Below, piece after piece: positions 19,340 to 22,965 of a DNA stretch of 22,965 bases. Every line of letters begins with the position of its first letter. Position 1 is the stretch's first letter. Where the stretch lies: IMG/VR virus record IMGVR_UViG_3300045988_053025. One strand, given 5' to 3'. The notes under the pieces are model-generated. The model searched no databases and was not told the origin of the DNA. It saw only the letters and a list, made by a program, of their open reading frames with translations. The translations under genes and the position numbers were made by a program. This DNA is from a virus (taxonomy: Duplodnaviria; Heunggongvirae; Uroviricota; Caudoviricetes).

Positions 19340-19903
19340 TTAGCATGATTCAGGGGAAACCCCAATATTAAATATGAGTGTCTCCCCTGAATCAGCATAA
19401 TAATGTAATATTATTGACTTACGTTGTTTTCTTGCTTCGTAGAATAAACGCTCTTGCGGCGATAATTTGTGAAAACTGCCGGATGCACAATATATGTTTT
19501 TTAACTTTTCGCGGGTTTCTTTTATTGTATCTTCTGATATGTATTTTAGGTATTTATCCGTATAGATGTTGCTACTATAAGAAATTAATGTTTTGCTGTT
19601 GTTGTGATGTATTGTATTTTTATCGTTGAAGTCTGTATTTTTATTTACTGTCATTAGGTTTTTAATGATTACATGTAATACAATAGTCTCCCCATCATCA
19701 ATTCCATATTTGATGTCATAGTCAGTATATTTATTTGTTATACCGCTTCCTGATAGCGGCACTATGTACTCTGAGAAAAATGAGTTTGCCGCGTGACTAT
19801 CAAGAGCAATAGCAGTTTGTTTGTGGTAAAAATAAAACAATATTGAGAGAGTCAAAATAATAGCGACGCCTAATGCAACCTTTAATATAGATATGGTTTT
19901 CAA
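19340..19903 (-). CDS. membrane protein in AT-rich accessory operon (possible superinfection-exclusion protein)
   Basis: Minus-strand ORF 19340..19951. Start preferred at TTG 19903-19901 with AAGGAG (reverse complement of 19911-19916) 7 nt upstream, giving an N-terminal transmembrane segment KTISILKVALGVAIILTLSILFYFY. Visibly AT-rich with Asn/Lys/Ile-rich codons. It occupies the slot where P22 carries sieA, as I recall. Confidence 0.5.
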   Translation of the reverse strand: MKTISILKVALGVAIILTLSILFYFYHKQTAIALDSHAANSFFSEYIVPLSGSGITNKYTDYDIKYGIDDGETIVLHVIIKNLMTVNKNTDFNDKNTIHHNNSKTLISYSSNIYTDKYLKYISEDTIKETREKLKNIYCASGSFHKLSPQERLFYEARKQRKSIILHYYADSGETLIFNIGVSPESC

Positions 19904-19993
19904 AATATCGCTCCTTGTTGTAACATACATCAGTAATGTGGCGTTTTTCAATTGTATTAAAGACGTGTAATATGTACACGCCTTTTGTTCTTC

Positions 19994-20425
19994 CTATTCA
20001 GGTATTTCAATTCCAAAACCATCTGCATCCCATGAGTTTTCACAGATGATGTAACCTAGTTCATTGAGCTTATTAAATGTTTTTTCAAAGATGATCTGGT
20101 AATCATTATCTGCAAGTGATTCCAGTTCAAGGTCATTAAGGTTTATATAAAAACTTGTATGTCCAAGTGTTATTTTCTTATTAATTTCATTAAAGGTTCT
20201 TTTGAAAATAATATTTGATATTTCATGTCGTGCATTGTTTGCAATGATTTTTGCTTCATAAGCAGAAATTACGTCATCTTCATGAATATCTTTCAGAAAG
20301 CTGGTGTCAAGACGTTGTACTATTTCAGCGTTCATTGATCGCTTATTGGCTTTTGCAGAAATTTCTATTTTTTCTTTTACTTCGACGGGAAGTCTGATCC
20401 TTAGTTGTGGATCTTCTCTGCTCAT
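19994..20425 (-). CDS. mnt: Mnt-like ribbon-helix-helix repressor with extended C-terminal domain
   Basis: From ATG 20425-20423 the N-terminus MSREDPQLRIRLPVEVKEKIEISAKANKRSMNAEIVQRL aligns well with the P22 Mnt N-terminus as I recall it (ARDDPHFNFRMPMEVREKLKFRAEANGRSMNSELLQIV). The protein is about 143 aa with a ~100-residue C-terminal extension of unknown function. Divergent from the arc-like gene. Confidence 0.6.
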   Translation of the reverse strand: MSREDPQLRIRLPVEVKEKIEISAKANKRSMNAEIVQRLDTSFLKDIHEDDVISAYEAKIIANNARHEISNIIFKRTFNEINKKITLGHTSFYINLNDLELESLADNDYQIIFEKTFNKLNELGYIICENSWDADGFGIEIPE

Positions 20426-20481
20426 GTTCTTCACCAAATATTGAGTTACTTGCAATGATTGAAGTATGCCTCACCGTGTGC

Positions 20482-20516: not shown

Positions 20517-20531
20517 GCCCCACGGTGGGGC
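20517..20531. promoter_or_regulatory. operator-like inverted repeat GCCCCAC-g-GTGGGGC
   Basis: 15-bp near-perfect palindrome between the putative -10 and the RBS (AAGGAG 20533-20538) of the arc-like gene. The 12-mer GCCCCACGGTGG recurs at 20723-20734. Confidence 0.45.
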
Positions 20532-20545
20532 TAAGGAGATATGAA

Positions 20546-20713
20546 ATGCAAAAAGCAAAAGAGATGTGTCAACGACGAGTTCGTTTTCCGGACGATGTGA
20601 AGTTAGCTATTGAAAGAAATGGCGAAAAAGAATGCCGAAAGTTCAATACAGAGATTATCTATCAGCTGAGGAAAGTGTATGGACTCACTGGTGAGAAGAA
20701 TAGCGTGGCATAA
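20546..20713 (+). CDS. arc: Arc-like ribbon-helix-helix repressor (55 aa)
   Basis: ATG 20546 with AAGGAG 7 nt upstream. The sequence RRVRFPDDVKLAIERNGEKECRKFNTEIIYQLRKVY resembles P22 Arc as I recall it. Small, directly upstream of the ant-like gene and divergent from the mnt-like gene. Confidence 0.55.
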   Translation: MQKAKEMCQRRVRFPDDVKLAIERNGEKECRKFNTEIIYQLRKVYGLTGEKNSVA

Positions 20714-20785: not shown

Positions 20786-21721
20786 ATGACGAGTATAGCA
20801 ACAGCAGTATCTACTATCAACGTGCCATTCCACGGCGCAGAGCTTTATGTTGTCAATCACAACGGCGAACCGTATACCCCAATGAAACCTATCGTTGAGG
20901 GAATGGGGCTAGACTGGAAATCTCAACATAAGAAGATTTCTCAACGCTTCTCGAAGGGTATGGTGGAAATCACCATACCTTCTGCCGGTGGGGTGCAAGC
21001 CATGATTTGTATGGCTTTACGAAAATTGGCAGCTTGGTTGAACAGCATCAGCCCTAACAAAGTCCGCCCTGAAATCCGCGACAAGGTAATCCAGTATCAG
21101 GAAGAGTGTGACGATGTGCTCTACGAGTACTGGACTAAAGGCCATGTGGTTAACCCACGCAAAGCTAAAAAGGCGTTGCCGGGTAAAATAACAACTGAAC
21201 AGCAGGAAGCCATTAAACAACTCGTCATGAGTCGCGGTCAGTCTCTGCCAAAAGAAAAACAGGCTAAGGCGATGATCACCATGTGGTCGTCACTGAAATC
21301 TCATTTTGGCTGTTCGTACAAAGAAATTGGTGAAGATCAATTTGCCGAAGCGTTGTCTCTTGTTGCTCGGGTTCCGCTTGAAGGGGAGTATCTCCCTGCT
21401 GGATCTGCATCAGAGAATGATGAAGTGGCAGTCAAGATGTTAGATGCGCTTCGTGAGGCAATTAAAACACAGACAAAATGTTATGGTTATCCATTGAAGC
21501 CAGGCTACCGCAGTCTGATTCATTCGCCGTCGGGTGTTCTCGGCCTGACGGAGAACTCACTGCTGATGAATCTGCTGAACCAGTTACAGGACGGGCACGA
21601 TGTATCGGGCGCGGCGGCGGAGCTGACCACCATGTTCTGCTACATCGTCGGTGTGAGCAAATGCCTGCGTGATATCCAGACGCACGCGGAATACATCAAC
21701 GACAAAGCAGGGTTCTTCTGA
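20786..21721 (+). CDS. ant: phage antirepressor (Ant-like)
   Basis: 311 aa; N-terminal VPFHGAELYVVNHNGEPYTPMKPIVEGMGLDW fits the antirepressor / Bro-N-type pattern as I recall it. Sits downstream of the arc-like gene in a P22 immI-like arrangement. Its 3' end is duplicated in inverted orientation at the right edge of the window. Confidence 0.6.
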   Translation: MTSIATAVSTINVPFHGAELYVVNHNGEPYTPMKPIVEGMGLDWKSQHKKISQRFSKGMVEITIPSAGGVQAMICMALRKLAAWLNSISPNKVRPEIRDKVIQYQEECDDVLYEYWTKGHVVNPRKAKKALPGKITTEQQEAIKQLVMSRGQSLPKEKQAKAMITMWSSLKSHFGCSYKEIGEDQFAEALSLVARVPLEGEYLPAGSASENDEVAVKMLDALREAIKTQTKCYGYPLKPGYRSLIHSPSGVLGLTENSLLMNLLNQLQDGHDVSGAAAELTTMFCYIVGVSKCLRDIQTHAEYINDKAGFF

Positions 21722-21745
21722 CAGAACGGCGGCACAGGGACGTGC
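21590..21745 (+). repeat. inverted repeat, left arm (3' end of ant plus ~24 bp downstream)
   Basis: Reverse complement of 22811..22965 matches 21590..21745 with 4 mismatches across the 132 coding nt, all synonymous, plus a short indel in the 3' flank. The repeat probably continues beyond the window. Confidence 0.85.
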
Positions 21746-21759
21746 AAAACGAAACTAGC

Positions 21760-21771
21760 GTGACATGTCAC
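21760..21771. repeat. 12-bp perfect palindrome GTGACATGTCAC, copy 3
   Basis: Read directly; immediately 5' of the terminator hairpin downstream of ant. Confidence 0.9.
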
Positions 21772-21796
21772 AGGCCGCTTTCGCGGCCTTGTTTTT
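21772..21796 (+). terminator. rho-independent terminator downstream of ant
   Basis: AGGCCGC-TTTC-GCGGCCT hairpin followed by TGTTTTT; overlaps the stop of the minus-strand small ORF. Confidence 0.65.
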
Positions 21797-21956
21797 AACG
21801 AATGCCACCGCCACCCGGGCGGGAATCCGCAGAACGCCCACCGCAGCGGGAGCCGTCAGCGGCAGTATCGCTGTCGTGCTGACAACGACCGGCAAAGGCC
21901 TGAGTTGAAGCTACCAGAGACAACAAAACGAACAGTGCAGCAAATGCTTTTTTCAT
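21795..21956 (-). CDS. small secreted peptide (53 aa) with signal peptide
   Basis: From ATG 21956-21954 the translation is MKKAFAALFVLLSLVASTQAFA|GRCQHDSDTAADGSRCGGRSADSRPGGGGIR: basic N-region, hydrophobic core, AxA cleavage motif, mature part with two Cys and a Gly-rich tail. The longer ORF-track start (GTG 22028) abuts a terminator and lacks an RBS. Confidence 0.4.
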   Translation of the reverse strand: MKKAFAALFVLLSLVASTQAFAGRCQHDSDTAADGSRCGGRSADSRPGGGGIR

Positions 21957-22028
21957 TGTGAAATTTCCATCTATAAGCCACCTCAATGTGGCGTCAATGA
22001 GTGTAGCACTGACTTTTGTTTCGTCCAC

Positions 22029-22049
22029 AAAAAAGCCCGCGCTGCGGGC
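22029..22049 (-). terminator. rho-independent terminator for the 210-aa gene (minus strand)
   Basis: GCCCGC-GCT-GCGGGC hairpin (22035-22049) followed on the minus strand by a 6-nt T run (plus-strand A run 22029-22034), 5 nt past the TAA at 22057-22055. Confidence 0.65.
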
Positions 22050-22054
22050 TTCTA

Positions 22055-22687
22055 TTAATGCAGTTTATCTTTGCTTATAACCAGTAGTCTGTGGGTATGC
22101 ACATCTTTATCACTGCCCCAACAGAAATCAGCCCACTGGCTATAGAAATCATCCCATGATGCCATGAAGCTAAGAGGTCTATCTTCTTCAGAGCCATCTG
22201 AAACGTATACATTATATCCTGGGGTGTTTATAGCCCAAGAAATCATTCTTTCCCAGAATCTTCTCCCATCGATTGTTTGTTGCTCATCAGATACAACGAT
22301 CGCATATTGCTCTAGGAAGAACTGAAAAAAAATCTGAGGCAAACCATGAACAGCACGGTCATGAATAACATTAGGCGTACGCCATACCATGATCTGCGTA
22401 CATGTTCTTTTGGCTTCGACGATATCTTCCCGAAAGATTAACTTAACCGCATACACCGTTTCTGGAGTATCGCTGGTAGTAATCATTCTGTAATGATCGC
22501 CATTACAAGATTTTACAAGGCGATAACCATAAGGTGTTGTGAATCCCGGAAGAACGAAATCAACCACACCTTTCGCTAAGTAGCTTTCGGTGTGACTAGT
22601 GTTCTTCTCAGACATGTTCAGTTTTCTATCGAAATCTGCTTCTGGGATAATGTATGGCATCGCTTTTCTTGTTGTATTTGTTCTCAT
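22055..22687 (-). CDS. hypothetical protein (210 aa), orphan accessory gene with own promoter and terminator
   Basis: ATG 22687-22685 with GGAGG 5 nt upstream on the minus strand, a candidate promoter upstream and an intrinsic terminator downstream. Trp/Phe/Asp-rich C-terminal half; no family recognised. Confidence 0.6.
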   Translation of the reverse strand: MRTNTTRKAMPYIIPEADFDRKLNMSEKNTSHTESYLAKGVVDFVLPGFTTPYGYRLVKSCNGDHYRMITTSDTPETVYAVKLIFREDIVEAKRTCTQIMVWRTPNVIHDRAVHGLPQIFFQFFLEQYAIVVSDEQQTIDGRRFWERMISWAINTPGYNVYVSDGSEEDRPLSFMASWDDFYSQWADFCWGSDKDVHTHRLLVISKDKLH

Positions 22688-22760
22688 TTCGTCCTCCCAT
22701 GTTTGGCTACAGGACGCGTTTTGAAGGGAAGATTAAAAATGCTTTCTTACCCTTGAGGTA

Positions 22761-22789
22761 ATAGTACGCTATTCACCCCCAGTCTGCAA
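22761..22789 (-). promoter_or_regulatory. candidate sigma70 promoter for the 210-aa gene
   Basis: On the minus strand: -35 TTGCAG (reverse complement of 22784-22789), 17-bp spacer, -10 TACTAT (reverse complement of 22761-22766), about 70 nt upstream of the ATG. Confidence 0.35.
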
Positions 22790-22833
22790 TCTGTACAGAA
22801 TTATTTAAAGGCACATCCCTGTGCCGCCGCCCG

Positions 22834-22965
22834 TCAGAAGAACCCTGCCTTGTCGTTGATGTACTCCGCGTGCGTCTGGATATCACGCAGGCATTTGCTC
22901 ACACCAACGATGTAGCAGAACATGGTGGTCAGCTCCGCCGCCGCGCCCGATACGTCGTGCCCGTC
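22834..22965 (-). CDS. antirepressor-like protein, C-terminal fragment (gene continues beyond window)
   Basis: Minus-strand frame encodes ...DGHDVSGAAAELTTMFCYIVGVSKCLRDIQTHAEYINDKAGFF then stop (reverse complement of 22834-22836), identical in protein sequence to the last 43 residues of the ant-like gene at 20786..21721. All four nucleotide differences are synonymous. Confidence 0.55.
   Translation of the reverse strand, partial: DGHDVSGAAAELTTMFCYIVGVSKCLRDIQTHAEYINDKAGFF

Follow-up and report, generated by a model that had tools for sequence, protein, structure and literature searches.

The 22,965-nucleotide (nt) stretch of DNA analyzed here (IMG/VR virus record IMGVR_UViG_3300045988_053025; Duplodnaviria, Heunggongvirae, Uroviricota, Caudoviricetes), referred to below as the window, is a temperate Escherichia coli prophage whose closest matches in the phage databases are fragments of Phi05 and Escherichia phage TL-2011b. 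An open reading frame (ORF) of 53 codons at positions 21795–21956 of the window was found to be a genuine gene, the protein product of which is under strong purifying selection in its frame. The reading that we favor, and judge to be probable, is that this gene is an autonomous moron encoding a Sec-exported, cleaved, and disulfide-closed periplasmic peptide that binds a ligand and alters the envelope of the lysogen. The gene is no discovery in itself, being an annotated (RefSeq WP_000708858.1, with the NCBI name "transmembrane anchored protein") and unstudied family member. What seems to be undescribed is the breadth of the family, the extreme conservation of a 24-residue motif among its members, the reuse of this motif as a module, and the way in which the gene stays in place next to a hot spot for cargo genes. 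Roughly one in ten complete E. coli genomes carries the gene, yet no Pfam family, solved-structure match, or paper was found for it.

The size of the ORF is uninformative by itself, with 55 ORFs of at least 25 amino acids (aa) occurring within 3.4 kb. Because frames of this length are frequent by chance, conservation was used as the test of coding capacity. The homologue collection comprised 57 close homologues and 57 loci, with one genome per species, and the test was run on the 24-codon core of 37 homologous sequences (666 pairs). In this core the proportion of differing sites was 0.79 for synonymous sites (pS), which is near saturation, versus 0.24 for nonsynonymous sites (pN); the corresponding values within Enterobacterales were 0.71 and 0.11. 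Column entropy was highest at third codon positions (1.62 bits, versus 0.70 at first and 0.47 at second positions), and codons for the same residue switched between families (Ser between TCN and AGY, Arg between CGN and AGR). It is therefore conservation of the frame, and not its size, that identifies the ORF as real. An earlier note on this DNA, made from the letters alone, had pointed to a 53-aa ORF at this place without naming its strand, and had staked the idea on conservation of the frame in homologous loci. The ORF stands, on the minus strand, and its frame is conserved among the 37 homologous loci.

Two other readings of the locus were tried and set aside. A 77-aa version of the protein, which is the form found in PHROG 3117, would start from a GTG codon at position 22028; neither this start nor the extension that it adds is conserved among homologues, and the extension overlaps the terminator upstream of the gene. 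A reading of the locus as RNA was also rejected in favor of coding: over positions 21600–22200 the best Rfam matches were far under the gathering scores, and the fold of the whole transcript is not unusual (z = −1.6).

The window protein is 100% identical to gp43 of TL-2011b and is a member of PHROG 14503 ("membrane associated protein," moron category), PHROG 3117, and the NCBI family, with the PHROG 14503 match covering residues 1–53 of a 53-position profile (E 2.3e-40). The exact protein is present on at least 1000 public contigs, where it bears the NCBI name given above, a name that is also attached to homologues. The segment containing the small ORF was recovered from 531 of the 5426 complete E. 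coli genomes, with ≥80% coverage in 422 of them. A relative is encoded on 305 IMG/VR contigs; the IMG/VR scan returned 100%-identical copies only, which were of use for a survey of cargo genes and added no diversity. A profile search gave 672 clusters, and an exhaustive hidden Markov model (HMM) search of 1.84 billion proteins gave 628 representatives at E ≤ 1e-3, 87 of them at E ≤ 1e-10. The 57 loci of the genome scan come from Enterobacterales, Rhizobiales (Mesorhizobium, Devosia, Rhizobium, Bradyrhizobium, Agrobacterium, and Methylobacterium), cyanobacteria, Bacteriovorax, Vibrio, Rhodoferax, and Polyangiaceae. Every named source organism is a bacterium with a double membrane, a restriction that fits a periplasmic, disulfide-dependent unit. 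The window peptide matches no Pfam family at E ≤ 1 and nothing in PADLOC, and its NCBIfam matches to HxsA3 and MarB (E ~0.1) were dismissed as noise driven by the signal peptide.

Predicted export, the mature peptide, and reuse of its motif

The coding sequence and its parts are as follows.

21795–21956, minus strand: coding sequence of the 53-aa pre-peptide MKKAFAALFVLLSLVASTQAFAGRCQHDSDTAADGSRCGGRSADSRPGGGGIR, with an ATG start and the stop codon at 21795–21797 (ORF list and sequence)
21891–21956, minus strand: signal peptide, residues 1–22 (MKK, hydrophobic core, AFA), with a predicted signal peptidase I cut after Ala22
21798–21890, minus strand: predicted mature peptide GRCQHDSDTAADGSRCGGRSADSRPGGGGIR, 31 aa, ~3.06 kDa, pI ~8.1
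21813–21884, minus strand: conserved core motif, Cys25 to Gly48 (alignments A1, A2, and A5)

The window protein begins with MKK, continues with the stretch AFAALFVLLSLVA, and then presents the sequence A-F-A|G, where the bar marks the predicted cut. The same layout was sought in 87 homologues with a rule-based check rather than a trained predictor. Their n-regions contain one or two Lys or Arg residues and are followed by 8 or more uncharged residues in a row; at position −3, 84 of the 87 have Ala, Ser, or Val, at −1, 81 have Ala or Ser, and at +1, 79 have Gly. The first ~22 residues thus vary freely yet keep an A-x-A|G pattern. The Sec signal peptide that the earlier note had proposed is borne out to the extent that rules can predict one, since its features are present here and conserved in 81–84 of the homologues. 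We infer from this pattern that the pre-peptide is exported by Sec and cleaved by signal peptidase I after Ala22. A lipoprotein reading was rejected for the window protein, in which Cys25 is preceded by A-G-R and the Arg at −1 is incompatible with a lipobox.

The mature part follows the family consensus C-x4-D-x-A-x-D-G-S-R-C-G-x-R-x4-R-P-G-G. Alignment A5 comprises 88 sequences; C25, A32, G35, S36, C38, R41, G48, and G49 are invariant in it, and D30, D34, R37, G39, R46, and P47 are identical in at least 90% of its sequences. Exactly two cysteines are found in the mature part of every one of the 87 homologues, and Cys25 and Cys38 are predicted to form a disulfide. Mature length is 28 aa in 69 homologues and 31 aa in 15, the window protein being among the latter. 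The mature part of ~31 aa with two cysteines that the earlier note had described is therefore a fair picture of the window protein, whereas the Gly-rich tail to which it had also drawn attention (GGGGIR) is the trait of a subset, the 31-aa forms (15 of 87); most members end one residue after RPGG. In the AlphaFold model, residues 2–19, which belong to the signal peptide, are helical, and residues 31 and 37 are bridged in a small loop.

In many relatives the motif forms one module of a larger protein, with lipid- or membrane-anchored forms among them. In some (P0157, P0165, and P0193) an N-terminal motif, placed after a signal peptide or lipobox, is followed by the sequence RNPDTDW, a membrane helix, and a cytoplasmic part, and in others a Pro-rich linker connects it to a second secreted domain. 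Lipoboxes occur in P0190, P0216, and L055 (LTAC, LSGC, and LIAC in distant relatives). The motif is also found at the extreme C-terminus behind a membrane helix (P0198 and P0208) and in tandem copies (P0139 and P0224). Across 143 representatives, no informative Pfam domain recurs among the domains fused to the motif; T2SS-T3SS_pil_N was seen in two.

Two variations on this theme were noted in passing. In the cyanobacterial proteins L051, L056, and P0182 the motif is a C-terminal unit behind Ser/Gly-rich linkers, and a second recurrent motif with a Cys pair, C[YF]M.......L..LCG, accompanies it. A variant with four cysteines, CPCPY..DG..CG.RSAYS.PGG..P.C, was found in P0257, P0281, P0282, P0283, and L049 (3899–4102); in alphaproteobacteria it occurs in tandem copies or behind a bacterial SH3 domain. 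This variant suggests a larger superfamily of G-x-x-C-G-x-R-S-A...PGG mini-domains. P0257, P0281, and P0283 match the peptide-family profile at E 9e-9, and P0281 matches Pfam DUF6719 (PF20477) at E 6.5e-5, but with 23.2 bits versus a Pfam cutoff of 27. The link to DUF6719 is unproven: a search for further members gave four proteins, none with PF20477, and the window protein is unmatched at E ≤ 1. Even a firm link would say nothing about function.

Transcription unit and adjoining cargo slot

The signals and genes next to the small ORF are listed by position.

20786–21721, plus strand: gene for the antirepressor Ant, with a P22_AR_N domain
21760–21771: perfect 12-bp palindrome GTGACATGTCAC, at the downstream edge of the module
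21772–21789: GC-rich hairpin common to the convergent ant gene and the small ORF
21966–21968, minus strand: Shine-Dalgarno core GGA, 9 nt before the ATG (read from sequence)
21977–21992, minus strand: 5′ leader stem-loop GCCAC-AUUGAG-GUGGC
21992–21997 and 21970–21975, minus strand: alternative promoter candidate TTGACG-N16-TATAGA
22000–22005, minus strand: −10-like hexamer TACACT with TGGACG 16 nt upstream, a weak sigma-70-type promoter candidate
22029–22049, minus strand: intrinsic terminator of the upstream cargo gene, GCCCGC-AGC-GCGGGC followed by U6 (read from sequence)
22055–22687, minus strand: 210-aa gene (PHROG 1349)

Read along the minus strand, the region starts with the 3′ end of a second antirepressor gene, of Bro-N type, that runs off the window, and continues with the 210-aa gene, the strong terminator, the small ORF, and the hairpin. 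The small ORF converges on ant, with 73 nt between the two stop codons, and the ORF coordinates confirm that it lies on the same strand as the 210-aa gene. The upstream terminator begins 5 nt after the stop codon of the 210-aa gene and is also the upstream boundary of the conserved module, in that homology between the window and TL-2011b starts exactly at this hairpin. The phiV10 match to the query consists of a short terminator segment only and does not cover the ORF. A consensus scan missed the terminator, probably because flanking A/T runs lengthen its stem. Given this terminator, the peptide gene needs a promoter of its own. The earlier note had placed the ORF between two terminators; the upstream one is good on the minus strand, whereas the downstream hairpin is the canonical terminator of ant, with its T-run on the plus strand, and has no U-tract in the direction of the peptide gene.

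Most loci have, by eye, a T-A-x-x-x-T hexamer 4–7 nt before a leader hairpin. In 14 Enterobacterales loci the layout of the leader is this box, a gap of 4–7 nt, a stem-loop of 5–7 bp, CUACACA, GG(A/U)AAG, and the AUG. A covariance model matches upstream of the ORF in all 14, and in 12 of them the hairpin lies 18–41 nt upstream of the ATG. Pairing in the stem reaches 82% of cells; displacing the 3′ partners by −2 to +3 columns gives 17–33%, and a displacement of −3, for which there are 31 cells only, gave 87%. All five stem pairs show double changes, and the covariation score was reached by none of 500 shuffles. These values come from a small sample of 15 distinct sequences in a model-fitted alignment, which leans towards structure. 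On sequence grounds, the conserved −10-like box and the covarying hairpin argue for a transcript start at this place, and the messenger RNA (mRNA) would begin with the stem-loop if the upstream box is a −10 element. A 5′ stem-loop is a known means of stabilizing mRNA, and the leader hairpin could act in this way or as a regulatory site. At the Shine-Dalgarno position, relatives have GG(A/U)AAG or stronger GGAG or GGGG boxes.

At the other end of the gene, a stable hairpin was found within 60 nt after the stop codon in 24 of 46 homologous loci, versus 24 of 215 control windows. At the hairpin of the window the peptide transcript may plausibly end in a non-canonical way, or it may read through into the 3′ end of ant. 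In Kluyvera, Klebsiella, and Buttiauxella loci (L006, L007, and L015) the palindrome GTGACATGTCAC likewise follows the hairpin, and similarity ends right after it. This palindrome could be a protein-binding or recombination site; a reading of it as a CRP site was rejected by eye for wrong spacing. In E. coli, the upstream terminator, the covarying leader hairpin, the peptide gene, and the downstream hairpin form a fixed unit.

Upstream of this unit the genes change. In 80 IMG/VR contigs (L060–L139), the stretch preceding the identical peptide gene falls into at least 10 unrelated classes, which include a YafO-like toxin, DUF4760, DUF2335, several membrane proteins, and the 210-aa gene (11 of the 80). 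The cargo slot corresponds to positions 22050–22830 of the window, between the Bro-N antirepressor gene and the upstream terminator. In TL-2011b the identical peptide gene follows the gene for the YafO-like toxin, and the 210-aa gene is present in 93 complete E. coli genomes, adjoining the peptide gene in 92. From these classes and genome counts it follows that the peptide gene is the constant element beside a slot that swaps its cargo, and that the 210-aa gene is one cargo among many. No slot cargo gene gave a PADLOC match, and the 210-aa protein has no Pfam match either. The peptide gene can serve as a landmark for mining the cargo of the adjoining hot spot, such as the YafO-like toxin, DUF4760, and membrane proteins.

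In other genera the peptide gene occupies other places in prophages, beside Rz, Q, holin, terminase, Ant/Bro, or Arc genes, and outside the enterics its neighbors are heterogeneous and include non-phage chromosomal contexts. No conserved neighbor recurs across genera, as judged by Pfam counts over 202 neighbor ORFs and all-against-all BLAST. Leads from Rap1a-like immunity domains (3 loci) and LprI (1 locus) were too few to build on. The gene thus behaves as a moron in two respects: its presence and position vary among related phages independently of its neighbors, and it has a downstream hairpin and is separated from the flanking genes by terminators.

Proposed role and competing readings

The proposed mechanism runs as follows. 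The moron would be a self-contained transcription unit outside the core gene set of a TL-2011b-like E. coli prophage, expressed in the lysogen from its own weak promoter. Sec would export the pre-peptide, signal peptidase I would cut it after Ala22, and the 31-aa product would be oxidized in the periplasm to give a 14-residue Cys25–Cys38 loop, rich in Asp, Ser, and Gly, with an Arg/Gly-rich tail. In the periplasm it may then bind, as a small module, a ligand shared by double-membraned bacteria, at a guess a divalent cation or an envelope component, and so serve as a lysogenic-conversion factor that changes the envelope. A binding module is proposed because relatives display the motif free, lipid-anchored, or tethered to a membrane helix at either end. 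E. coli prophages, rhizobia, and cyanobacteria have in common a 24-residue sequence that is near-constant at saturated synonymous sites, and this points to a molecular interaction of a precise kind. More tentatively, and with somewhat less conviction than we would give to an even bet, the motif may be an undescribed and widespread periplasmic mini-domain (~25 residues, one disulfide, and one specific, universal ligand, either a cation or an envelope component), of which enteric temperate phages captured the free form for lysogenic conversion. If this were true, it would be among the smallest periplasmic domains of double-membraned bacteria.

Envelope genes carried as morons by prophages and expressed in lysogens are well known, among them bor and lom of lambda, cor of phi80 and N15, llp of T5, and sieA of P22. 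Most encode lipoproteins or membrane proteins of ~100–200 aa with known phenotypes (serum resistance, receptor blocking, exclusion). Like them, the gene studied here codes for a small protein predicted to be exported or located in the envelope, is presumably dispensable for the phage cycle, and is flanked by termination signals and candidate expression signals of its own; its place, too, is between phage modules that are conserved (the immI-like Arc/Ant region in this case), and related phages may or may not carry it. Unlike them, it shows no sequence relation to these genes, its predicted product is a soluble peptide of 31 aa, and its family is also common in non-phage chromosomal contexts far outside the enterics. 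If the peptide alters the envelope or blocks superinfection, a very small class of lysogenic-conversion factor would be added.

Another resemblance is to the Excalibur calcium-binding domain (Pfam PF05901), which has the motif DxDxDGxxCE. Both are small, extracytoplasmic (by prediction for the peptide), and Cys-bounded, with an acidic loop ending in D-G-x-x-C (here D-x-A-x-D-G-S-R-C-G). The peptide differs in having Ala at the third acidic ligand position, a much shorter Cys spacing (12 residues), and no Pfam match at E ≤ 1. As an analogy, the resemblance may be taken as a lead for cation binding. At 31 residues the peptide is synthesizable, so its fold and ligand are directly testable.

Several observations weigh against the favored reading. 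The database name "transmembrane anchored" would imply a signal that is not cleaved. Confidence in the AlphaFold model is moderate (mean pLDDT 76, pTM 0.37), no PDB match was found by sequence profile, and Foldseek returned no match for the model, which contained the signal helix and a domain too small for a fold search. The expression signals are weak in places: neither promoter candidate passes a 9-of-12 consensus scan, the Shine-Dalgarno sequence is a bare GGA, and on the peptide's strand the downstream hairpin is followed by GTGACATGTCAC in place of a U-tract. Neighborhoods and fused domains give no pointer to a ligand, and literature searches by family name, motif, accession, and DUF6719 gave nothing of relevance.

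An uncleaved, signal-anchored inner-membrane protein with a 31-aa periplasmic tail is an unlikely alternative, though one worth keeping in mind. It agrees with the names given to the protein by NCBI and PHROGs, and many relatives do tether the motif to a membrane helix or lipid, so a membrane-proximal site would suit it. These names are automatic and untested, however, and small residues at −3 and −1 with Gly at +1 are conserved in more than 90% of the 87 homologues while the hydrophobic core varies freely, which is the pattern of a cleaved signal and not of an anchor. It strikes us as improbable that the peptide is released and exerts an effect on other cells, be it as a toxin of the bacteriocin or microcin type, as a signal, or as a toxin against the host that resembles a heat-stable enterotoxin. 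The product is small, Cys-containing, Gly-rich, and predicted to be exported, and the gene is common in pathogenic as well as commensal E. coli. Unlike class II microcins and bacteriocins, however, it has a Sec-type leader, and neither an ABC exporter nor an immunity gene nor a double-glycine leader turned up among the annotated loci and the neighbor-domain counts. STa has six cysteines and STb and EAST1 have four, as opposed to two here. There is no toxin match in PADLOC or Pfam, and the incorporation of the motif into membrane-tethered proteins and its presence in free-living soil and aquatic bacteria point instead to a role in the envelope.

The two remaining alternatives concern the neighbors of the gene. 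The convergence of the unit on ant, a shared hairpin that is a poor terminator in the peptide direction, and flanks made up of a conserved leader hairpin and a 12-bp palindrome would suit the idea that the transcription unit rather than the peptide is selected, with convergent transcription dampening or insulating ant in the manner of the antisense sar RNA of the P22 immI region. We regard this as very improbable: selection acts at the amino-acid level, the gene is also found away from ant (beside lysis, Q, and terminase genes and in non-phage contexts), and the transcript has neither a striking fold nor an Rfam family at threshold. A secondary regulatory effect may nevertheless exist. The earlier note had offered two possibilities for the peptide, a periplasmic partner of the 210-aa protein or an independent small exported factor. 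A dedicated two-gene system is the possibility to which we give the least credence. The genes are adjacent on the same strand, and nearly all copies of the 210-aa gene (92 of 93) adjoin the peptide gene, but the dependence is one-way: the co-occurrence across genomes that the note had suggested checking is not mutual, as the peptide module is present in 422–531 complete genomes, mostly without the 210-aa gene. Moreover, a terminator separates the two genes, unrelated cargo takes the place of the 210-aa gene in other contigs and in TL-2011b, relatives in other phyla have no such neighbor, and by eye the N-terminus of the 210-aa protein lacks a positively charged, hydrophobic, signal-like start. 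The view of the peptide as an independent exported factor is supported by its own upstream terminator, its conserved leader, a downstream hairpin, the at least 10 classes of upstream neighbor, and its varied contexts.

Surrounding genes and inverted repeats

The surroundings of the small ORF resemble the immI region of P22, with Arc- and Ant-like genes. In addition to ant, two genes contribute to this resemblance.

19994–20455, minus strand: Arc-domain gene (domain match)
20525–20713, plus strand: small gene with weak Arc-like matches

The first of these codes for a 153-aa protein with an N-terminal Arc/ribbon-helix-helix domain and a C-terminal extension (PHROG 1388), and was likened to a Mnt-type repressor facing an Arc-Ant operon. 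Next to it, a gene for a 203-aa protein (19340–19951, minus strand; PHROG 8033) is without known domain and has a hydrophobic-looking N-terminal region.

The cargo slot and the small ORF are together enclosed by an inverted repeat. Its arms, at 21590–21722 and 22833–22965, are 133 nt long and 97% complementary, and adjoining arms of 19 nt at 21727–21745 and 22811–22829 are 95% complementary. The arms correspond to 3′ ends that two convergent antirepressor genes have in common, one encoding Ant (P22_AR_N) and the other the Bro-N type; these ends comprise the last ~45 codons and the beginning of the spacer that follows. Recombination between such arms could lead to inversion or exchange of the enclosed segment.

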